In this document: positions 1-14,106 of the stretch, in pieces
How positions within the stretch are numbered: the first letter of the stretch is position 1
How the letters are laid out: the number at the start of each line of letters is the position of its first letter
Virus record (IMG/VR): IMGVR_UViG_2681813233_000009
Direction: 5' to 3' (one strand)
Source of the DNA: a virus
Lineage: Duplodnaviria; Heunggongvirae; Uroviricota; Caudoviricetes
DNA: 14,363 bases
The notes under the pieces: generated by a model
The model's database searches: none
Told to the model about the DNA's origin: nothing
Seen by the model: the letters and a program-made list of their open reading frames with translations, nothing else
Position numbers and translations under genes: made by a program

Positions 1-20
1 TCTGGATAATGCCAGCGTAG
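1..20. repeat. attL-side copy of att core (direct repeat; may extend left of the window)
   Basis: Identical to 14033-14052; sequences diverge immediately 3' of ...gcgtag (tcgtggcg here versus ggaagtca at the right copy). Confidence 0.7.
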
Positions 21-1555: not shown

Positions 1556-2578
1556 CTATTCGGAAGTGACTTGGCTTTGCTTTTTTATCGTTCTGGTTTT
1601 CAACATTTCAATCTGGCCAGCTTCGGTTAATGACCAGAAAGTATTCATGCTGCCATTGGTGGTTTTTAAATATTCAATTTTTATCAAACCATATGCCCTA
1701 AATTGCACTCCTATCGTTTTAAGGTCTTGAGAAGATACTTTTGCTGATGTGCCTCCCTTGCCTGCGACCTTTTGAGCGCTTTTGGCAATTGTGTATGATA
1801 CGCTTGATTCAGTATAATATTGAGTGAGATAGGGGGAGATTGAGTGAAAAATATCCTTCCATTTCATTTTCACGGACCAGTGTTTTGTTCCACCGGGATC
1901 ATACCCGATTCGAGGAAAGGTGGACTCACATCTAAATTCAAAATCATCATCAAAGTCAGCCAGATCCAGATCAAGTGTTTGACTAAGATTACTTGTGGCC
2001 TTGGCTAGTTCACTTTTTAACCATTCATTCTCTTTTTGTAAATCAACCATAGCCCGTAAATCAGTTTCAGAAGACGTTAGGTTGGCTCTTACCCATCCGA
2101 TTGCTGGATAAGTTTTCATCGTTTTACTCATACTTAAAGCAACCAACCCGGGTAAATCTTTGGCTGTTGCCCATGTTTTCCTGAGACGATTGGTTGAGGC
2201 CTTCTCTATAAATGCAGCTAGCTTCTCTCTGAGTTCAGAATCTTTTTCAGATTTGGCTAAAGGTAGATTTTCCGGATTCTCATGTACCAAAACAACGACG
2301 CGTAAACCTTTTGAAACTGCGTAATCGAATTCCTTTTCCGTGTAACTTAAACCATCTTCCGCGACAGAGCCATAACGACCACCAATGATCAGCAGATAAT
2401 AATCACAGTCATCAATTACTTTTTTTATGAACTCCCATTGGCCTTCATCGATTGCTGGGAACAACTCCATGCCTGCTGGAATGCAATCCATTTCCATCAG
2501 AGTTTGTATGACGTGTTTTCGTTCTTCTTCTAAATCCGTAAAAGTTGAACTTACGAAAACCTGGTAACGTTTATCCAT
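1556..2578 (-). CDS. Cargo protein, 340 aa, with N-terminal DUF4062-like motif ([16 protein letters not shown]); candidate defense or abortive-infection protein
   Basis: ATG at 2576-2578 (minus) with AAGGGA RBS; uninterrupted 340-codon ORF; visibly more AT-rich than neighbouring genes; N-terminal FVSSTF-DL-EER motif matches my recollection of the DUF4062 family; central coiled-coil-like segment ([28 protein letters not shown]). Domain assignment not verified by HMM. Confidence 0.8.
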
Positions 2579-2584
2579 TTTTAT

Positions 2585-2616
2585 CCCTTAAAAGAGGAAG
2601 GGGCATTAGCCCCTTC
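2585..2616 (-). terminator. Putative intrinsic terminator or attenuator between the small Cys-rich ORF and the cargo gene
   Basis: 8-bp GC-rich stem gaaggggc/gccccttc (2597-2604 with 2609-2616), loop atta; on the minus-strand RNA it is followed by CCUCUUUU, which overlaps the RBS of the downstream cargo gene. Confidence 0.4.
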
Positions 2617-2624
2617 ATTCAACA

Positions 2625-2891
2625 TTAACCAGCGTGACGGTAGGATTCACGCACACCATCACGATAACCATCAGCGAACGCTGCTTGAGGACTTTTGTGG
2701 CGAACGGTTCCCGCCTGGCTATCAGGTAAGGCGGCTAAGTCTACCCAAACCTGACCCGTGCGAGCCAAGCCAGCGCGGTAACCCTGATCGTAAGCGCAGC
2801 CGCAACATTTATGGCGACCTTCACCACCTTGATCGTGAGGTAAGCTGATGAAAAGAGTATTGTAACGGTGTGACTGTTTACAAATGGTCAT
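2625..2891 (-). CDS. Small Cys-rich hypothetical protein, 88 aa (MTICKQSHRYNTLFISLPHDQGGEGRHKCCGCAYDQGY...)
   Basis: Internal ATG at 2889-2891 (minus) preceded by a strong AAGGAG RBS at 6-nt spacing; the longer track ORF (to 3014) has no RBS. GC-richer than the adjacent cargo gene. No family recognised. Confidence 0.5.
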   Translation of the reverse strand: MTICKQSHRYNTLFISLPHDQGGEGRHKCCGCAYDQGYRAGLARTGQVWVDLAALPDSQAGTVRHKSPQAAFADGYRDGVRESYRHAG

Positions 2892-3571
2892 GCAATGCTC
2901 CTTATGAGCGTTCATTTTAAGGTTTACATGATCCTCTTTGCCTGGCACAATCAAGCCGTCAGAAATGAAGGCAAGGCTAAGATTCATACGAGTTTGGCGA
3001 CTCCTATTGGTCATGCTTTGTAAGCCGGGTTCGTGAAAATGAATCCGGTTTTTTTATGCCTAAAAATCAGGCATGGCACTACATGTGGGGGTGGTCAATC
3101 AATGGTGGCCCCACATAGACGATATTCTAGTGATGATTCTTTTCTGCACAAGGGTTGATTTTGACGTTAAATTGAGGTTGTGAAAGGGTAAAAATGCAAA
3201 ACCCTGCACAGCATAAGGCTTGGAAGACATGTCAATGATTAAGAAAAAAAAATCAAAATTTGATCGAGTGCTGATTTCTTCAACGGGAGGTCAGAATTGC
3301 GCGACATGATGTCGCGTAATCTTTATAAGAATAATGAATGGCATTAGTCGTTTTTGATGGTCTCTTGTAACATATAGTTAACATATAGATGTTCGTGAAG
3401 GGAGAAAGGCGCGAAAGGTAAATGTTATCTGGATAGTCTACCAATGCCTGTACCAGTACGAAAAGAGCGCTAATCATACCGAACTTAATCTCATAAAGGT
3501 TTTCACGAGAGCGAAGGACGTTAACGCTAGATTGCGAAACGAAACATTTCATTCTCTTCAATCTTTGGGTA

Positions 3572-3622: not shown

Positions 3623-3811
3623 TTACTTCTTTTGACGCTGTTTAGCGATCATAACGTTAAGCGCGTATTCAAAACCGTGTTGCGATTCCAAACGGCTAAA
3701 CGTCACGTTACACAGGCCCAACTCTCTACACAGTGCTTTACGGTTTACGACCTCCGCCGCGCCAGATACATAGACTTGACCAGCGCCGGGGATATTGATT
3801 GAAACTTTCAT
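3623..3811 (-). CDS. Hypothetical small protein, 62 aa, last gene of the capsid operon
   Basis: ATG at 3809-3811 (minus) with GAGGTG upstream; co-directional with the capsid gene and followed by the terminator at 3572-3610. The overlapping plus-strand ORF 3614-3802 lacks this context. Confidence 0.45.
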   Translation of the reverse strand: MKVSINIPGAGQVYVSGAAEVVNRKALCRELGLCNVTFSRLESQHGFEYALNVMIAKQRQKK

Positions 3812-3903
3812 GTGTCACCTCAAAAATAAAAGTAAAAATGAATATAACCGGAAGAGATAACCCCCAGCCGATACCCAAAGGGCGCGACCGGGGGCATTCT
3901 CTA

Positions 3904-4923
3904 TTACTTCAGCTTGACGTTCAGCATGTAGTTCGGGCGCAGGTTCAGAGGAATGAAGCTCGCCTCTTGGTGAACGGTCACCATGCCGTAACGGTCAGTC
4001 ATTACTTTTTGGTAGTAAGGGCTGATCACACCTTTAGCGGAGATATCCTGATTACGTGAAGCCGGGCCGCGTACCAGTTTGAACGGGTTACGATCCGCTG
4101 CACTGAACTTTGGAACGAACAGGCCGGAACCTGCCGCGATTTCGTAGCGGTCATCGTCCGCCAGAATGAAAGTAATGTTGCCAATGCTGAAGGAGTCATA
4201 ACCCGCAGTGTTAACCGGGATCAGAGCGCCTTTTGCAGCCTCCGCCACTTTGTTGGTGATCAGGCTGGTTACTTCTGGGTGGCTCGCCAGAACGTCATAC
4301 AGATCCGGGGAGCAGAAGCAATAGAAGCGGTCCAGATAGGAGCGGCTCGCGCCGTACTCTTTAACCAACATGCGGCGAATCTTCGCAAGCTGTGCATAGA
4401 CGTTAGCGCCTGCTGAACCGTCGAGGTCGAAACTCAGCGGAGCAGTACCAAACACAGCGTTAAAATCTACGTCGCCGTCATCCGTTTTAGCCGCTTTCGC
4501 TTCCTGCTTGAACAGGGCGCGGGCCAGTGTGCTTTCAACTGTTTCCAGATGATAGTTACGCATACGGATAGCTTTATCAGCAATAACAGATGTGATCGCC
4601 TGAGCCTGATCCGGGTTAGCCGGGCTTACCAGGCCTTGCCAGTCAGCGGTTTTTACATCCGCCTCAGTGGCATAGTGTGGGATCTCCTGGTTACGCAGGA
4701 TGGTTTTATCCATCATGATCGCGTTAACTTCGGTGCCATAGCGGGCAACCTGCTCCAGTTCACTAACCTGAGTTTCCACAATATCCACAATCTGGGCGTT
4801 TGGAGTGGTTGAGTTAACATCGGAGAAGATACCCAGATCAGAGATCAGGTAATTACCTGCTGGTTGATCTTTGATCGCCGCTACAGTGTCCAGCTTTTCA
4901 AACTGTTTAAAATCAATAGCCAT
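3904..4923 (-). CDS. Putative phage major capsid protein, 339 aa (family not verified)
   Basis: ATG at 4921-4923 (minus), AGGAA RBS; starts 12 bp after the stop of the upstream small gene (small-gene/capsid-gene arrangement as in lambda D-E); A/D/S/T-rich composition typical of virion proteins. Capsid assignment is by context and gestalt, not by alignment. Confidence 0.6.
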   Translation of the reverse strand: MAIDFKQFEKLDTVAAIKDQPAGNYLISDLGIFSDVNSTTPNAQIVDIVETQVSELEQVARYGTEVNAIMMDKTILRNQEIPHYATEADVKTADWQGLVSPANPDQAQAITSVIADKAIRMRNYHLETVESTLARALFKQEAKAAKTDDGDVDFNAVFGTAPLSFDLDGSAGANVYAQLAKIRRMLVKEYGASRSYLDRFYCFCSPDLYDVLASHPEVTSLITNKVAEAAKGALIPVNTAGYDSFSIGNITFILADDDRYEIAAGSGLFVPKFSAADRNPFKLVRGPASRNQDISAKGVISPYYQKVMTDRYGMVTVHQEASFIPLNLRPNYMLNVKLK

Positions 4924-4935
4924 TGTGTGATTTCC

Positions 4936-5307
4936 TTATGCTTTGAAGTAATCGGCGTTGATAGCCAGGCGAATATCACCGGAGGCTGTCAGCGCTTCCA
5001 GTGCGGCTTTTTTGCTCGCGGCGTCTTTAGCACGTAGGGCAAAATCGGTAATCACAACATGGCGATCCACGATAACCAGCGTTTTAGTCTTGCCATCGGC
5101 GGACATATTGGAAAGGTTAATGATCGGCTTGCCAGCTTCAGCGGCGGCGGAGTCGAACAGGGCAAAAGTTTTGCTGTCCAGAATATCGCCACAGTAGACG
5201 TCAGCCGGGAGGCTTGGGGCGGTTACTTCGGTGCGGTCAAACAGGCTGGAGGCGTAGTTGACGATTACGTCACCTTGCGTTACCGGGTAGCGCTCGGAAG
5301 TTTTCAT
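4936..5307 (-). CDS. Putative head decoration or capsid-associated protein, 123 aa
   Basis: ATG at 5305-5307 (minus) with AAGGAAAA RBS; the track ORF extends to 5451 but lacks an RBS there; tightly coupled (12 bp) to the downstream capsid gene. Confidence 0.5.
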   Translation of the reverse strand: MKTSERYPVTQGDVIVNYASSLFDRTEVTAPSLPADVYCGDILDSKTFALFDSAAAEAGKPIINLSNMSADGKTKTLVIVDRHVVITDFALRAKDAASKKAALEALTASGDIRLAINADYFKA

Positions 5308-5437
5308 AAAGGTTTTCCTTATGGAGGGTTTTAGACGTGGAGAGAGTCCACAGGATGATCCGGCGTTGCACCGAATATAAGGACCGCCACAGAGGACAAT
5401 CCGAATTGTTGGAAGATGGGAGGCCGTGGATTGAATA

Positions 5438-5467
5438 GAAGAGGGCGGCATCCGCGCCGCCCTTTCT
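5438..5467 (-). terminator. GC hairpin with flanking U-rich tracts upstream of the capsid operon (possible leader terminator)
   Basis: 7-bp stem gggcggc/gccgccc (5443-5449 with 5456-5462), loop atccgc; tttct follows on plus, and tcttctatt follows on the minus RNA; lies about 135 bp upstream of the decoration-gene start. Confidence 0.4.
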
Positions 5468-6551
5468 AATCTGGCTCTCTCTCACCCTCGCGGGTGGGGA
5501 AGGATATTTATCCTTTTGTGTGGATACTTGCCGCCCCTGGTGGCGTCACGTCGAATAGCACCAACCTTTTGGCAAATACCCACAAAAAAGAACCCGGCTG
5601 GAGGAACCGGGGTGGACAATGTAACTTACTGTATGATCACTTGTTTTCCTGTGTAGCCTCAGAGCCTTACATGATTTGCTTTCATGGTTCAGCAAAGAAG
5701 CCACAGAGGAAAACGGGCACCCTGAACGCGCCCGGAAACCATCGACGCAAATCAATAGTTTATCGTTGAGACCAGGTAACCAGCCCGGCCCAACTGTGAC
5801 CCCGTGGAGGGTCGATACAATTGAAGGAGATTCGCTTGTATTCTGAAGAGCCGCAGTTAGCGACGCTTTAGAATAGGGCCTGTGGCGCAAGCACTATGAT
5901 TAGAGGCGTTTTGAATCGTAGGAGTGAAACAATCGGCGGAACTTGAGGAGAGGACCGCACACAAAGCATTCTGGCAAGTGGAGTTGAAAGAACACTTTGG
6001 GTGAGGGCCGGGGCGGGGGAGAAGCCGCCCGGCTCACTCAGTACAGATCCTAATTGCACACGTTGCGACTCTGTACAGGTGGGGGGCGTGACAAGCTGCA
6101 AAACGGTAATTTCGATATCCTCGCCACACCCCACACCATGTATATTAGTTTAACACGAATGATTATCATTTGCAATAAAAATTAATTGCATTGTGTTGAG
6201 TCTTATGATATTGGCGGCCACACACGTGACGGATCAGATCTGCATTAATTTTTATTAGTGAGTGGTCTGACTCAGGGAGGGCTATGTGTCCCAAAAGACA
6301 CACGAAGTAATAATAGATATATAAGACCTCGCTACGCTCGCCCTCCGGGTCCGTCTTATTGATCTTATATAATAACTTCATTCAATAACTAATTGTTTTC
6401 ACAATTAATCATTTCATTCGTTATTATATGATCTTAAAACCTTCTCGCCCTTTGGGCTTACCAGGTTTTAGGCCGGGGCCTATTTCCCCACAATGTAGAG
6501 TCTCGCCTGTGTGGCTCATCTCCCGGGGGGCATTTTGAAACAAGGGTGTAC

Positions 6552-6612
6552 TGACAAAATGTCACAACGTGTTATGACAGATTGGCACAACGTGTTATGA
6601 CAAAATGTCACA
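6552..6612. promoter_or_regulatory. Cluster of dyad-symmetric repeats (operator- or iteron-like)
   Basis: 17-mer cacaacgtgttatgaca occurs twice (6563-6579 and 6586-6602), 6 bp apart; 15-mer tgacaaaatgtcaca occurs twice (6552-6566 and 6598-6612); each unit is itself a near-palindrome (TGACA-aaa-TGTCA; TGTCAcAACG/tGTTaTGACA). Confidence 0.5.
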
Positions 6613-7052: not shown

Positions 7053-7081
7053 TTGCGAATCATTGTCAAATAGTGTAAAAT
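7053..7081 (+). promoter_or_regulatory. Candidate sigma70 promoter for the plus-strand operon
   Basis: TTGCGA (7053-7058), 17-bp spacer, TAAAAT (7076-7081), about 75 bp upstream of the ATG at 7156. Read by eye only. Confidence 0.3.
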
Positions 7082-7155: not shown

Positions 7156-7581
7156 ATGAGTATTTACCTCGATGTTGAAAAAATGGTTGAACGTGTCGAT
7201 CAGCGTGACCTGACCCGTAAGACCCTGACAGAAACCCGTAGCCGAATGAAAGCCGCCGGACGTATGGGAGAAGTTGAAGCGATTACGCAGGCCCTTGAAA
7301 TGACCAAATCAAAAGCATCCGGCGTCATGCGACAGTCTCAACGTATCGCTGCAAAGATCACCGAGATGGACGCAGAGAAAGCACTTGAAGTTAAAGCAGC
7401 CGTTTCGCTGTTCGCTTCCAAGTCTACAGACATGCAAGCCTCCATTGTGCTGGCGTTCCAATCCCTCTTTGAGGCTAAAGGCGTCCCGATGGAATACGAC
7501 GAAGTGATGGCTTTTATCATGCTGCAAGCGGCGGATCAGTTTGAGCGTATCACCGGAGAGTTGCCCGTTATCGTTCACTAA
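7156..7581 (+). CDS. Hypothetical protein, 141 aa
   Basis: ATG with AAAGGAGA RBS; first gene of a co-directional, tightly packed gene string; no family recognised. Confidence 0.7.
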   Translation: MSIYLDVEKMVERVDQRDLTRKTLTETRSRMKAAGRMGEVEAITQALEMTKSKASGVMRQSQRIAAKITEMDAEKALEVKAAVSLFASKSTDMQASIVLAFQSLFEAKGVPMEYDEVMAFIMLQAADQFERITGELPVIVH

Positions 7582-7610
7582 TTATTCATTTACTTTTTGG
7601 AGAGGAAACA

Positions 7611-7862
7611 ATGAGCAAATATCAGCCGTATGTTGATTTGAGTGATTCCCCTGTGTTGTCGGCGTATGCACAGCAGACGATCAACCAGTTGGACCCAACC
7701 CTGTACGATGACATTTACGAAATGTTGAAGCAGGTTAGTCCCTCCAAGTTGGTGACGATTGGCAACCCGGCGATCACCGCCCCGGCGTCATGGTGGGGTG
7801 ATTGGTTCGGCCTCAACCTCACCGCTGAAGACATCGCAGAATTACAGGAGATTGATCTCTAA
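7611..7862 (+). CDS. Hypothetical protein, 83 aa
   Basis: ATG at 7611 with GGAGAGGA RBS; its stop overlaps the next start (TAATG). Confidence 0.65.
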   Translation: MSKYQPYVDLSDSPVLSAYAQQTINQLDPTLYDDIYEMLKQVSPSKLVTIGNPAITAPASWWGDWFGLNLTAEDIAELQEIDL

Positions 7863-8041
7863 TGCAGATTGAATTTTCCCCCGAAGTGGCGGATCAGCTT
7901 TTTGAGTTGGCCCGCACAAGGAAGCACGGCTCCGCCTACGCAATCGTAAGAAAAGCAGTTAAGCAGTATTTGGATTCAGTTGAAGCTATTAACCCTGTTG
8001 AAGAGGATTTAACCCATGACCGCAGCACCCGCAGCAAGTAA
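7862..8041 (+). CDS. Small ribbon-helix-helix-like DNA-binding protein, 59 aa (absent from the ORF track)
   Basis: ATG at 7862-7864 overlapping the upstream stop (TAATG); translation MQIEFSPEVADQLFELARTRKHGSAYAIVRKAVKQYLDSVEAINPVEEDLTHDRSTRSK has an RHH-like strand-helix-Gly-helix pattern; overlaps the next gene by 26 nt in another frame. Confidence 0.5.
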   Translation: MQIEFSPEVADQLFELARTRKHGSAYAIVRKAVKQYLDSVEAINPVEEDLTHDRSTRSK

Positions 8042-8681
8042 GCCGTTTACCGCAATCCCGCATGACCTTGCGGACATTGAACAGATCAGCGGTAAGGCGT
8101 TTACCATGAACATGGTTTACACCTACAGCCTGATCAAATCCTTCCAGGACAATGGGCAAACGGCTTATTTCTCACAGGAGCTTTTGGCCCGTCGCCTGGG
8201 GGCATCCATCCGCAGCGTGATCCGCCTCCTGGCGGAGATGGTGGAAATGGGATTGATCAATAGTACCGGGCGCGTGGGTGGCAAGACCTGCCATTACACA
8301 GTTAACCCGATCACCCCGGAAATGGTGGGAACCCCTGAAGCCGCCAAACCTGAAGTAACCAAACCAACCGCAGCACCCCAACCCGTGGAGACCGTAGAGA
8401 ATGCAGGAAGTAACCAGCCTGGAATTGTTAAGTGTGGATCTGAAAGCGTACATAGAAGCCGCCCGGCGTCGTCTGGAGTTGCTCCTGTGGACCACAGCGG
8501 GGGCGCTGTTCGTCCCGCTCCTGTCCCTGTGCCAGTAGAGCAGGGGGCCGCAAACGATGATTTACGTAACCCTGTTATTAATTATGTGGCTGGCTCTAAT
8601 GTGATGATGGTCAACGGTTTGCCTGTTGAATATCTGGAGCCAGAAGAAAGCGGCATTGATCAGTTTGGTGATGCCTTCTAA
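8016..8681 (+). CDS. Putative winged-helix DNA-binding protein, 221 aa (replication initiator or regulator candidate)
   Basis: ATG with GAGGA upstream; HTH/winged-helix-like segment FSQELLARRLGASIRSVIRLLAEMVEMGLINSTGRVGG; Pro/Ala-rich linker and acidic C-terminal tail (EPEESGIDQFGDAF). Confidence 0.7.
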   Translation: MTAAPAASKPFTAIPHDLADIEQISGKAFTMNMVYTYSLIKSFQDNGQTAYFSQELLARRLGASIRSVIRLLAEMVEMGLINSTGRVGGKTCHYTVNPITPEMVGTPEAAKPEVTKPTAAPQPVETVENAGSNQPGIVKCGSESVHRSRPASSGVAPVDHSGGAVRPAPVPVPVEQGAANDDLRNPVINYVAGSNVMMVNGLPVEYLEPEESGIDQFGDAF

Positions 8682-8757
8682 AAATCTGCGATTGATTTCC
8701 CACTAATAACACTCTACACAAAACCCCCGCCGTTTACAACCCTTTGGAGATTCTCGC

Positions 8758-9324
8758 ATGAATAACTTTATCACTACTAAATTCAACGCCTTAACCTCCG
8801 AAGAGGAAGCCGCAGTAAATGCACTGGCGGAGAAATTAGCAGCAAACAAGCCCCGTCGGATTATGGATGAGAGCCATTTGACCCCGGATCAAATCCTGAA
8901 GATCAAGCGGGCCTGTATTCAGGGCCACAGCGCTAAAGCCATCCAAGCGGCCTTTAACGTGTCGCTGGCTTACGTCCTGAGAGTAAAGCGCTCCCACAAC
9001 CCTAAGAAGTACCAGAAGACCCCGCTCACCTTGCCAGAAAAGGCAGTGTTGGCCCAGCAGATGGACGCCGATAATTTGAGCTTGGATAAAATGGCGGAAC
9101 TTCTGGGGATCAACAGTAAGATGGTTTCCCTACTTCTTACCCAACCTTCACCCCGTTACCTGGTGGAGCAAATGCTCCCGTATGACCAAGTTTTACAGAA
9201 CCTCCGCAGCGCCCGCTACGTGGAAAGCCCTGTATACAAAAAAGGGACGAGTATGCGCCGTGTGCGACTGATCGTTTCTGAAGCTCGTCAGCAGGCCCGC
9301 CAGGCAATCATTAAATCCCGGTAA
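8758..9324 (+). CDS. Putative HTH-containing protein, 188 aa
   Basis: ATG with GGAGA RBS 8 nt upstream; two HTH-like segments (LTPDQILKIKRACIQGHSAKAIQAAFNVSLAYVLRVK; LSLDKMAELLGINSKMVSLLL). Function unverified. Confidence 0.65.
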   Translation: MNNFITTKFNALTSEEEAAVNALAEKLAANKPRRIMDESHLTPDQILKIKRACIQGHSAKAIQAAFNVSLAYVLRVKRSHNPKKYQKTPLTLPEKAVLAQQMDADNLSLDKMAELLGINSKMVSLLLTQPSPRYLVEQMLPYDQVLQNLRSARYVESPVYKKGTSMRRVRLIVSEARQQARQAIIKSR

Positions 9325-9495
9325 TTATGTCCAACCCAACGGAATGGGACCTAAAGGATTACTTAGGTTCCAAACTGGTTAAGCGTCAGACAAGACTCTC
9401 TAACTTTCTCGCCCCCTTCCTCTATATCCCCTTTAAGCCCGCTTCCCTCCTCCTGTGGGTAGTGGTAATCACTTTCATTATAAGGACTCTCTCAA

Positions 9496-9870
9496 ATGCA
9501 CCCCTTTGAACTACTGAAACGCCAGCTTGACGAAATGGCGAAATCCCGCCAGGTAGAGCAGGCCCAAGAGGAAGCCGCCGCCCGTGAACTCCGCAAGGCA
9601 CAGGCCGATCTCTCCCTGGACGAGGCTATTGCTCTGTACGGTACACAGTTGGAAGCCTCCACCGATGCAGCAGACAGCGCCCAGAAGGGCCGCGCCATTA
9701 AGAGCCGGGGAATTGCTCTGTGTCACAAGGATCAGGGATTCAGCGCCAACGGTCGCCCTGTGTCTCTCCTGACCAAATCAGCAGATCTGCCAGCAGGTCA
9801 CCGCCGGGTAATCATCAACAAAGCAGCAGGGCGCACCCTGAAGGCTATCAATCTGGAAGGGGCTGAATAA
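9496..9870 (+). CDS. Hypothetical protein, 124 aa, translationally coupled to the tape-measure-like gene
   Basis: ATG at 9496 with AAGGA RBS; its stop overlaps the next ATG (TAATG at 9868-9872). Confidence 0.6.
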   Translation: MHPFELLKRQLDEMAKSRQVEQAQEEAAARELRKAQADLSLDEAIALYGTQLEASTDAADSAQKGRAIKSRGIALCHKDQGFSANGRPVSLLTKSADLPAGHRRVIINKAAGRTLKAINLEGAE

Positions 9871-12060: not shown

Positions 12061-12627
12061 TCATAACAGATCCGCTATTGAATATTTATCACTAAAATCA
12101 TCTACTTTGCGTTGTGTGGCCCCAATGTAATGAAGCGTACTGGATAACGATTTGTGCCCTAATGCTTTACTAATTACAGCTATATCCTCCCCATTGTCAT
12201 AACCAATCGTTGGTTTACTCTTCCTCATGCTGTGGGTCGAAAGATTCAGCCCCAGCTTTTCCCCGGCGTAGCTAATTTCCTCATGCAATTTGGAGCGGCT
12301 CACAGGTTTTCCCTTGCTCCTGTGGCTGTCCAACTGTAAGAGGTACACATTATCAGGGTTAGCCTCTCTCCGGGCCGCTATGATGCGTTTAGCGGTATCG
12401 GTAAGCCTCACCCGGACAGATTCACCCGTTTTCTGTTGGGACAGGACAAGGTGATCGCCTTTGATGTCGGCATAACGGATAGAGCGCAGATCCGACACCC
12501 TCAGCATTAATTCATAACCCAATAACCAGGCGTCACGGTACAGCGTCAGCCCCTTGCCCTGTTTGAGTAGCTCAACTGCTACCGCTTTCACTTCCTGAAC
12601 TGATTTACAGCCCTCTACGAAATTCAT
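12061..12627 (-). CDS. Small tyrosine recombinase, catalytic domain only (FimB/FimE-sized), 188 aa
   Basis: ATG at 12625-12627 (minus) with GGAGAG RBS; the track ORF begins at an upstream TTG without an RBS; motifs LRVSDLRSIRYADI (Arg), HSMRKS (His-x-x-Arg), LGHKSLSSTLHY (His and Tyr). Confidence 0.8.
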   Translation of the reverse strand: MNFVEGCKSVQEVKAVAVELLKQGKGLTLYRDAWLLGYELMLRVSDLRSIRYADIKGDHLVLSQQKTGESVRVRLTDTAKRIIAARREANPDNVYLLQLDSHRSKGKPVSRSKLHEEISYAGEKLGLNLSTHSMRKSKPTIGYDNGEDIAVISKALGHKSLSSTLHYIGATQRKVDDFSDKYSIADLL

Positions 12628-13020
12628 TCTGTACTCTCCAGAACCTAACTGTGATAAATTTTTGATCAAAAACAAGCACTTGTAAACGACAAAAATTATT
12701 AATTTTAAGTTGTGTCTTTTTAGTGAATTAAATCGGGTTTAATCGCGTTTAATGGCAGAGTAATGACCCGGCAGGGGAGGTAATGGGCTGTTTATGTGGG
12801 TAAAAGATGGTTGCTTAATGTACTATTACCACAAGACGGGTAAGGTGATTTGACTCCCTCAGTTCCTTTAAGCTACTGTATTTATGGGAAATTAATTATT
12901 GTTTCTTTATGGTGTTGCCTGGCAAATTTTCAGTTTACCCTCAAGAAAAATCCCCATCTTTTTTATTCTCCACATGAGAATAAATTTTGTTTGCAAATAT
13001 CACTCATTCTCAACTCCAGT

Positions 13021-13199
13021 CGGGGCGAAAGCCTTCGCCCCTTAAAGGGCCTTTGTAGGCTCGCTCTCTGTATGCGCCTGTGGCGCTACCACTCTCAACC
13101 CTGTGGGTTTGTATGGCTTGCCACAAGATAACGCGCCACAGGCGCACAGGGGAGGCGGACGCCTCCTGGGTGGCCCGGCTGGGCCACTGGTCCACAGGG
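13021..13199. other. GC-rich structured non-coding segment (multiple hairpins and a paired palindrome)
   Basis: Hairpin ggggcgaa/ttcgcccc (13022-13041); palindromes gcgcctgtggcgc (13074-13086) and its exact reverse complement gcgccacaggcgc (13133-13145); hairpins ggaggcg..cgcctcc and ggccc..gggcc (13150-13185); the only ORFs here lack RBS and context. Confidence 0.35.
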
Positions 13200-13588
13200 T
13201 AAAAGGACAGAATGGTATTGTGTTGTTATTAAGTTGTTGAGATTAAAGGGATGTCTTAGGGGGGACTGTAGTGGAGGAAGGTTGGGCAGGGTTTAATCAG
13301 AATGCAGGTCACTCGGCAGGGAGTGCCCTTAGATATTTGGCGAAAATACACGTGACCCCCCAGGGCCTCAGGTTGAAGGGCCTAGCAACAATATCCAAAC
13401 TCCCGGATATTTTCCCACCCAACTGGAAGGAATCCGCCCCTATTTTCTGTTCGTGTATAAGTTAGGCTGAGGGAGGCTTGCCAATGTACACCCCCTGGAT
13501 TTGGTGATCTGTTAAGTTATTGATTTTGATCGATTTTAGATCAATCATCCGTTGCCGGGATTACCCCCACCCAGACGGATGGCACACA

Positions 13589-13771
13589 ATGAATAACGAT
13601 AAAGCAAACCACCCTAAACACTTCCAATACTTGGGCCGCATGGTCACTGTTTACCCTACATACATCATTATTGACGGTATCAAGATTAGCCGTTCCCGTC
13701 TTTCCTTTGCATTCCAATTGGAATTGGCAAAAGCACTTCGACTGCATGAAGAAAGCGTATGCAGAAAATAG
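13589..13771 (+). CDS. Hypothetical small protein, 60 aa (alternative TTG start at 13520 gives 83 aa)
   Basis: ATG at 13589 with a weak GGA-containing RBS; followed by a strong terminator; no family recognised. Confidence 0.35.
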   Translation: MNNDKANHPKHFQYLGRMVTVYPTYIIIDGIKISRSRLSFAFQLELAKALRLHEESVCRK

Positions 13772-13832: not shown

Positions 13833-13981
13833 GTGCCTGCCATTTATCTGTGGGTCACAACGTGAGACACAAACTGGGACACAGAGGATTTTTTAGGGTT
13901 GAGTCTTTGGCTTCCCGCTGGCATGATCCAGAACAGGGATTAACGGGACGTTAATCGCAAGCTTTTGATTTTGTTTTATTT

Positions 13982-14106
13982 GACTCGGGGTGCCCTTCTG
14001 CGTGAAGGCTGAGAAATACCCGTATCACCTGATCTGGATAATGCCAGCGTAGGGAAGTCACGGACCACCAGGTCATTGCTTCTTCACGTTATGGCAGGAG
14101 CAAACT
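13982..14106 (+). promoter_or_regulatory. TPP (THI-box) riboswitch of thiM: aptamer plus expression platform
   Basis: Sequence gactcggggtgcccttctgcgtgaaggctgagaaatacccgtatcacctgatctggataatgccagcgtagggaag matches the E. coli thiM TPP aptamer as I recall it (including the conserved CUGAGA element); it runs into the thiM RBS (aggag at 14096-14100). Confidence 0.9.
14033..14052. repeat. attR-side copy of att core, lying inside the TPP aptamer
   Basis: Identical to positions 1-20. Confidence 0.7.

Follow-up and report, generated by a model that had tools for sequence, protein, structure and literature searches.

A head-gene pair in an Enterobacterales integrative island points to a phage satellite family that may build its own shell on Vequintavirinae helper parts

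[quoted passage not shown] Here we analyse a 14,363-nucleotide (nt) stretch of DNA, IMG/VR record IMGVR_UViG_2681813233_000009 (the window), and within it positions 3623-5307, where an earlier note on the same DNA had recognised an orphan pair of head genes, one capsid-like and one decoration-like. We find that this pair belongs to an integrative island that also encodes p124, a 124-residue protein carrying a fragment of a candidate helper protein, and a tape measure protein (TMP). In our judgement, this pair probably serves as shell module in a mobile phage satellite that depends on a helper and assembles a small shell of its own on helper parts; if this is true, the island follows a strategy intermediate between those of the known satellites. 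A more detailed version is put forward tentatively: the island may represent the first-seen ‘hybrid-capsid’ satellite family, dependent on Vequintavirinae (Certrevirus) phages, with its own shell, p124 as adaptor and a shorter TMP, with portal, protease, terminase and the remaining tail stolen from the helper, and with capsid genes that are gated by a leader RNA and switched by a helper-type regulatory cassette.

Like the cf-PICIs, the island is an integrative element of Enterobacterales, and the small capsids of the former are described as made from satellite-encoded HK97-type proteins, not from the coat protein of the helper, with other parts contributed by the helper (10.1101/2022.09.08.507074). 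Unlike them, the island shows no portal, protease, connector or terminase in Pfam and PHROGs searches and hence no full head module; it has a TMP and a fragment of the helper protein in the scaffold position, and its candidate helper is a large virulent myophage. The resemblance to P4 consists in an integrative element of ~11-14 kb with an integrase and an adjoining defence hotspot, P4 having a decoration protein (Psu), small capsids and regulation that is coupled to the helper. In P4, gene control also involves a leader-derived RNA and premature termination. In contrast to the island, P4 has neither a coat-protein gene nor a TMP gene and re-sizes the P2 coat protein by means of Sid, an external scaffold, and psu, sid, delta, epsilon and the alpha primase-helicase had no Pfam or PHROG match in the island. 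Small satellite proteins that imitate part of the helper scaffold, the role proposed for p124, are exemplified by SaPI CpmB and SaPIpT1028 Rcm (PMC12409344); CpmB redirects the helper coat protein, whereas p124 would couple helper machinery to a foreign coat protein, and the segment that p124 shares with the helper protein is the N-terminal motif of the latter.

PLE (helper ICP1; 10.1101/2023.03.01.530633) and the phage-inducible chromosomal minimalist islands (PICMI; PMC10803314) are small integrative islands with virulent helpers, as is proposed for the island studied here. PLE is described as remodelling the ICP1 coat protein with TcaP, and PICMIs as encoding no capsid-remodelling genes; neither is known to encode a coat protein or TMP, and no sequence relationship to the island was seen. 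The Mulch/Flayer satellites of Streptomyces encode part of their own encapsidation machinery and need a helper for the rest, whereas their hosts and genes are unrelated to those of the island, and neither a helper scaffold fragment nor a TMP is known from them (PMC10690885). As for the classical phage-inducible chromosomal islands (PICIs), whose hallmarks are int, alpA, pri-rep and genes for packaging or capsid redirection (terS, ppi/rpp, cpm), the island shares the integrase, with no AlpA, primase or TerS family match in Pfam and PHROGs and with a helix-turn-helix (HTH)/O-like initiator as its replication gene. Because the defining genes are absent, the island can be classified neither as a cf-PICI or PICI nor as P4-like. 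It is closest to cf-PICIs in having its own shell, to SaPIs in scaffold mimicry and to PLE/PICMI in having a virulent helper, and the most fitting place for it is that of a new family among the phage satellites. No description of this island family was found in the literature searched, the coverage of which was incomplete, such that an earlier description is possible.

The island is ~14.0 kb long (14,032 bp att-to-att), is bounded by direct repeats and is inserted in the thiamine pyrophosphate (TPP) riboswitch of thiM; the window ends are E. coli chromosome, and in related E. coli genomes the island lies between rcnR and thiM. In the related locus L001, the att core repeat is 71 bp long, with copies that differ at two positions, and lies inside the thiM TPP riboswitch; ~71 bp are duplicated on integration, and a complete riboswitch is retained at attR. 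Contig L003 (Logan ERR14942281, 13,700 bp) has identical 30-bp ends, and in its reverse complement the attR core joins the attL-proximal sequence directly (14052 to window position 1); L003 is the product of precise excision, a circle of 13,670 bp (or a concatemer of it), and contig L014 is permuted likewise. Two further element-length contigs, L011 and L012, end at or near att repeats and were excluded from the excision evidence. The att repeats and the attP junction of L003 thus identify an integrated element that excises and circularises, as is generic for satellites. The att-to-att sizes of five loci are 13,261, 13,570, 13,669, 14,032 (this window) and 14,129 bp, with differing cargo. From the left, the island consists of attL, the integrase, a variable cargo slot, the leftward genes for p62, the major capsid protein (MCP) and the decoration-like protein (Dec), and a 1.85-kb spacer free of open reading frames (ORFs), followed by the rightward genes for p141, p83, p59, the HTH/O-like initiator, p188, p60, p124 and TMP, a small tyrosine recombinase and attR (Table 1).

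Table 1. Features of the island in the window, with positions, strand and the evidence or remarks for each
Feature	Position	Strand	Basis or remark
attL core, last 20 bp	1..20	.	Exact direct repeat with 14033-14052; window begins within core
Tyrosine integrase, 451 aa	108..1463	+	PF00589, E 5e-7; 83-94% identical copies at same end of related islands
Variable cargo slot	1556..3014	-	DUF4062 protein (340 aa, 1556-2578) and 129-aa phrog_3941 protein (2625-3014)
p62, 62 aa, last gene of capsid operon	3623..3811	-	In nearly all family loci; dN/dS 0.06-0.35
Major capsid protein, lambda gpE-type, 339 aa	3904..4923	-	PF03864, phrog_29, 9zbi_A profile match, dN/dS
Putative head-decoration protein (Dec), 123 aa	4936..5307	-	Weak HDPD and phrog_2680 matches, synteny
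Structured 5' leader RNA of capsid operon, ~830 nt	5308..6140	-	Covariation; four terminator-like hairpins
Leader terminator-like hairpins	5734-5714, 5611-5593, 5463-5442, 5402-5381	-	Transcribed strand
Putative sigma-70 promoter of capsid operon, TTGCAA-17-TAAACT	6144..6172	-	By eye; not listed by promoter scan
Certrevirus intergenic regulatory cassette copy	6294..6375	+	blastn; homology reaches 6279-6427 in one phage
Three 21-nt iterons, 23-bp spacing	6546..6612	.	Candidate origin or operator
Sigma-70-like promoter of rightward operon, TTGCGA-17-TAAAAT	7053..7081	+	Conserved in all aligned members
Rightward operon, proximal genes p141, p83, p59, Rep221, p188 (DNA-binding), p60	7156..9509	+	Order conserved in all family loci
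p124, 124 aa, candidate scaffold adaptor	9496..9870	+	N-terminal motif of gp211/CR8_004 after unique 62 aa
Tape measure protein (TMP), 706 aa	9870..11990	+	PF20155, phrog_5255, phiTE TMP match
Small tyrosine recombinase, 204 aa, accessory	12061..12675	-	PF00589 1.5e-16, phrog_216
attR core	13982..14052	.	Within intact thiM TPP riboswitch 13976-14072 (Rfam RF00059, 74.8 bits)

The ORF listing contains three co-directional minus-strand ORFs in the region under study, and the earlier description of these as including a capsid-like and a decoration-like gene is borne out by the family matches, weakly for Dec. The 339-aa protein matched Pfam PF03864 (Phage_cap_E) with E 1.3e-16 and 61 bits (cut-off 22.9), residues 15-333 aligning to profile positions 7-324 of 329 (97% of the profile), which places it in this family, and PHROG 29 ‘major head protein’ (7.5e-18). 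Comparison of the capsid-family profile to PDB chains recovered 9zbi_A, the capsid protein of Pakpunavirus P7-1 (3e-6), and, with a weak score, that of phiTE, 9cul_G (0.086). The capsid-family similarity supposed by the note thus extends over the full length of PF03864 and to a PDB chain, and an HK97 fold is predicted for the protein from its sequence-family membership. The Dec start at 5307 coincides with the PGAP start in relatives (the same 372-nt gene). Dec matched Pfam HDPD at E 2e-4 and 21.9 bits, under the 29.1-bit cut-off yet end to end, and phrog_2680 ‘head decoration’ at E 0.008; phrog_2680 also contains the Certrevirus decoration protein CR8_005 (1.8e-42). The Dec gene lies directly upstream of the capsid gene, which is the gene order of lambda and the Certreviruses, and Dec is 80-100% conserved across the island family. 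The Dec-family profile had no PDB match and gave no hhalign alignment with CR8_005. The third protein, p62, had no match in Pfam, PHROG or PADLOC; it is kept in island versions with tyrosine and with serine recombinases, which argues against a recombinase-specific excisionase, and it might conceivably recognise DNA for packaging. By eye, p62 contains a helix-turn-helix-like stretch, NRKALCRELGLCNVTFSRL.

Among all window ORFs, no portal, prohead protease or terminase was matched in Pfam and PHROGs, in agreement with the note, and sheath, tube and baseplate proteins were likewise not found in these searches. The claim that the rest of head assembly is missing holds for the first three of these functions, whereas the element does have a TMP gene and p124, and the absence of a scaffold is only partly right given that p124 carries the N-terminal motif of the helper protein in the scaffold position. 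The recognisable virion genes are only those for the capsid protein, the Dec-like protein, p124 and TMP, an incomplete virion set such as is expected of a satellite. Readings as an encapsulin, a gene-transfer agent or a tailocin were dropped, the family being PF03864 and no cargo-loading, terminase or sheath genes being present.

An incomplete virion set could also be what is left of a decayed prophage, as the note had considered, in which case the head genes would be functionless leftovers of a once complete phage. The distribution of the island and the selection on its genes make this explanation highly improbable. By protein searches and contig look-ups, the island core was found conserved in >25 loci across Enterobacterales (E. 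coli, Enterobacter, Cronobacter, Citrobacter, Pectobacterium, Pantoea, Serratia, Pluralibacter, Klebsiella aerogenes and Salmonella) and also on IMG/VR and metagenome contigs; one cluster member is catalogued as ‘Caudoviricetes sp.’, and a scan of genome contigs gave one locus. In all 25 loci with both flanking genes, the spacer measures 1.75-2.1 kb and the gene set is the same, and the core order is identical whether an island has a tyrosine integrase or a large serine recombinase, which makes no fewer than two unrelated types of recombinase. Gene content, gene order and size are constant in many genera, and the homologous loci are not the truncated prophages with varying endpoints that the note had named as a refutation. 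Pairwise comparison with eight relatives, for which dS was often >1, gave dN/dS values of 0.13-0.17 for the capsid protein, 0.11-0.26 for Dec, 0.10-0.29 for TMP and 0.06-0.35 for p62; the capsid, decoration-like, p124 and TMP genes are under purifying selection. A dN/dS of ~0.15, or of 0.11-0.26 for the capsid protein and Dec at dS values up to and above 1, is not what functionless leftovers would show, and neither is precise circular excision. In favour of decay, the gene pair is rare in complete E. coli genomes (12/5,426, none on plasmids), and some E. coli copies are truncated or interrupted by insertion sequences (IS); these truncated loci are decayed copies and represent fragments of the 13.7-kb island itself rather than of a larger prophage. 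Among the complete phages of INPHARED and IMG/VR, none has these genes: the INPHARED phages had no capsid protein >~25% identical to that of the island, in IMG/VR the island capsid protein occurs only on contigs of 13.5 (13,501 bp), 15.8 and 21.2 kb, and the entire window had no megablast match to phages or plasmids.

Three independent signals, from TMP, the p124 motif and a regulatory cassette, appear to point to Certrevirus phages as helpers. TMP matched PF20155 (2.4e-26, 93 bits, cut-off 41), which assigns it to the tape measure proteins, as well as phrog_5255 (2.7e-104) and the solved phiTE TMP 9cuy_W (1.8e-83); its best phage relatives are those of CR3, CR8, CR9, PBES02, phiTE-like Pectobacterium phages and Enterobacter phage vB_ExiM_F1M1E. 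Identity to the CR8 TMP is 39% in the N-terminus, 36% in the middle and 36% in the C-terminus. The island TMP is ~107 residues shorter than that of CR8 or phiTE, the loss lying between the N-terminal and central blocks, which are separated by ~30 residues in the island vs. ~148 in CR8 (813-aa TMP). Tape-measure length is established to scale with tail length, so a shorter tail is predicted if the island TMP is used and this scaling applies. The host genera of the island overlap with those of Certrevirus.

In p124, a unique N-terminus of 62 residues is followed by roughly the first 60 residues of the helper protein gp211/CR8_004; over residues 63-95, identity to the CR8_004 N-terminus is 79% (26/33, E 1e-15), and p124 matched phrog_2970, the CR8_004 family, at 1e-15. 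Relatives of p124 carry the annotation PF26210 Phage_phiTE_211, and 226 phage records, without exception Vequintavirinae-type, contain the motif with an identity of 65-82%. The remainder of gp211, roughly 300 residues, is absent from p124 and presumably engages the helper coat protein. In phages, the gene order around gp211/CR8_004 is always prohead protease (PF14550), gp211, DEC, MCP, and the gp211 slot is the place of the scaffolding gene in lambda-like head modules. CR8_004 had no relative among the PDB chains, which include the phiTE virion entries 9cul, 9cuy and 9mjn; one phage record labels gp211/CR8_004 ‘structural protein’.

The third signal, the cassette in the spacer, matched by blastn only Certrevirus (24 records, 73-89% identity, intergenic DNA). 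CR8 carries two copies (138831-138908 and 75381-75464), each lying upstream of a block of early/middle genes and in the same orientation as that block, and common to the cassette copies are a strict 23-mer, AAAGACACACGAAGTAATAATAG, the motif ATTGATCTTATAAT and a hairpin in which the stem changes are compensatory. The cassette in the island is oriented rightward, across the iterons. Comparison of all island proteins to the complete CR8 genome by tblastn yielded only p124 and TMP, which indicates that the other island genes are not recent helper derivatives.

A helper-derived motif within a shortened protein is also compatible with an unpackaged interference or defence island, in which the capsid-like, scaffold-fragment and TMP proteins would act as decoys or dominant-negative subunits against Vequintavirinae assembly and the island would move by other means. 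We regard this explanation as unlikely, even though p124 resembles a shortened helper protein in which just a highly conserved motif for interaction is left, TMP retains both helper-like termini, a defence-type cargo slot is present, and no packaging signal or small terminase was found (scopes given below). A capsid protein that is ~21% identical to that of the helper is unlikely to co-assemble as a poison subunit, and a full-length capsid protein with a dedicated partner, both held by strong purifying selection over deep divergence, fits a self-assembling shell. The tight range of 13.3-14.1 kb despite cargo turnover suggests a packaging limit, and circular copies and a virus-catalogue contig exist. 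Interference is moreover compatible with the satellite reading, as known satellites combine interference and transfer.

The satellite-like role suggested by the note is supported by these results, whereas the mechanism it envisaged, in which a helper capsid is redirected or resized, is less likely because of the ~21% identity between the island and helper capsid proteins. Such remodelling would require that the island capsid protein and Dec mix with or cap helper capsomers and thereby change the capsid size. Both capsid proteins fall in PF03864 and can be aligned end to end, and the weak PHROG match of Dec is to the decoration family of the helper; BLAST, on the other hand, detected no similarity between the island and CR8 capsid proteins, and hhalign aligned them over the full length with only ~21% identity, E 1.8e-4 and a probability of 49%. 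For size redirection, the known satellites employ small scaffold-like factors (P4 Sid, SaPI CpmA/B, PLE TcaP) and are not known to add a second coat protein. We therefore consider remodelling improbable; more probably, the island capsid protein forms a shell itself.

Expression of the capsid genes appears to be controlled from the spacer, which in the window is 1.85 kb long and contains divergent promoter candidates. The capsid-operon promoter candidate is overlapped by a palindrome, TGCAAT...ATTGCA, and the block is conserved across the family. Between 3500 and 7300, we identified 14 terminator-like sites vs. 4.5 ± 2.2 expected, and no ORF is annotated in the leader region of relatives. Alignment of 17 distinct family leaders yielded 22 local helices (156 pairs in RNAalifold); pairing holds in 95.4% of the cells of the 146 local pairs, and 71 of these pairs are changed on both sides, compared to 17.5 ± 3.2 in shuffles (0/500) and 16-28 with partners slid by 1-3 columns. 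The structure belongs to the capsid-gene strand because many of the G-U pairs would be A-C mismatches on the opposite strand. Rfam searches at gathering and E-value thresholds found nothing in the 1.85-kb spacer and no family for the leader, and ARAGORN found no tRNA. The leader would make capsid-gene expression depend on terminator read-through, a late control of the antitermination type; it could be a large, new cis-regulatory RNA that acts by antitermination or attenuation or, in part, an independent non-coding RNA. At ~830 nt, this covarying leader is a sizeable new structured RNA by itself. The string TTTTTTGTGG follows a hairpin on both strands, ~70 nt apart (window 5500-5625), and the two copies pair in leader helix 12; the TTTTTTGTGG copies could also be two terminators that face each other, in which case a plus-strand transcript would run antisense to the leader.

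At the position of the iterons, each family member has its own repeat set, and the initiator Rep221 (8016-8681), an HTH/replication-initiator-O-like protein with matches to HTH_36 (1.5e-8) and PHROG replication-initiation families, varies too (47-88% identity, dN/dS 0.3-0.6), which suggests cognate origin-initiator pairs.

In the satellite reading, the helper would be a large (~150 kb, T=13) virulent myophage of the Certrevirus type, on infection by which the helper-type cassette would fire rightward across the iterons and turn on replication and the operon ending in p124 and TMP. Late read-through of the ~830-nt leader with its several terminators would then allow expression of Dec, the capsid protein and p62. 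The capsid protein and Dec would form a small shell sized for ~13-14 kb, probably T=4 by likeness to P4 and SaPI particles. Like lambda gpE, the island capsid protein has no delta domain and is therefore expected to need a scaffold; p124 would bridge the foreign shell to the helper portal and/or prohead protease through the shared 33-residue motif. The helper terminase would package about one island length into the shell. phiTE is a generalised transducer, which implies headful packaging, and the tight range of island sizes fits a headful limit. Helper tails would complete the particle, possibly built on the island’s own shorter TMP.

Several observations weigh against this scheme, and against the satellite reading more generally. 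Helper induction, packaging and transfer of the island are inferred from its sequence. AlphaFold2 models were unusable for both the capsid protein (16-sequence family alignment, mean pLDDT 46) and Dec (20-sequence family alignment, pLDDT 45), the alignments being too shallow, and the match of the 123-aa protein to head-decoration families (PF02924 / PF26074 / phrog_2680) is weak. No pac or cos site was identified in the window, cos not having been specifically looked for, and no small terminase (TerS) family was matched in Pfam/PHROGs among the window ORFs. Element-length contigs can come from assembly breaks at att repeats, such that only junction-spanning ones count. The scaffold role of gp211/CR8_004 is proposed from its gene position and its absence from PDB sequences. 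A satellite that carries its own TMP is hard to account for; it may serve to escape TMP-directed exclusion, to make a different head compatible, or to interfere with the helper, and its identity to helper TMPs is no higher than 36-39%. Finally, the cassette was not found in rV5-type phages of E. coli, and no Certrevirus isolated on E. coli was among the TMP or cassette matches, so no helper can be named for this E. coli copy.

Should the satellite reading be true, the island would be the first satellite assigned to Vequintavirinae/Certrevirus phages, as far as found in the literature searched, and a structural question would follow: how a coat protein of ~21% identity is nucleated on the helper portal and filled by the helper terminase. 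Vequintavirinae/Certrevirus phages include some that are studied for the biocontrol of plant and food pathogens and some that are generalised transducers. Resident islands could affect the efficacy of such phages and gene flow between Enterobacter, Cronobacter, Citrobacter, Pectobacterium and E. coli.

The remaining parts of the island vary among its relatives. The integrase and p62 enclose a hotspot for cargo, comparable to the known defence hotspots of satellites: this slot contains an OLD/AriA/GajA-like ATP-dependent nuclease in L001 (5628-7076), L003 and L011, and HNH genes in L014 (5237-6066). The window’s own cargo genes were not recognised by PADLOC, and the DUF4062 / phrog_3941 pair may be an undescribed defence system. 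Near the right end, the 204-aa recombinase is 87-97% identical in most members; this recombinase and an 83-aa ORF (13520-13771) show the highest conservation of all genes in the family (87-99% identity), yet both are missing from some members, and multimer resolution or an inversion switch are possible roles for them. Many E. coli genomes match only ~30% of the window, with the 204-aa recombinase and an IS4 annotation, adjoining thiM. Between the small recombinase and attR, the non-coding DNA at 13073-13146 contains a perfect 14-nt inverted repeat, TGCGCCTGTGGCGC / GCGCCACAGGCGCA, with arms 46 nt apart, and a similar string, GCCTGTGGCGC, is found at 5878-5895.

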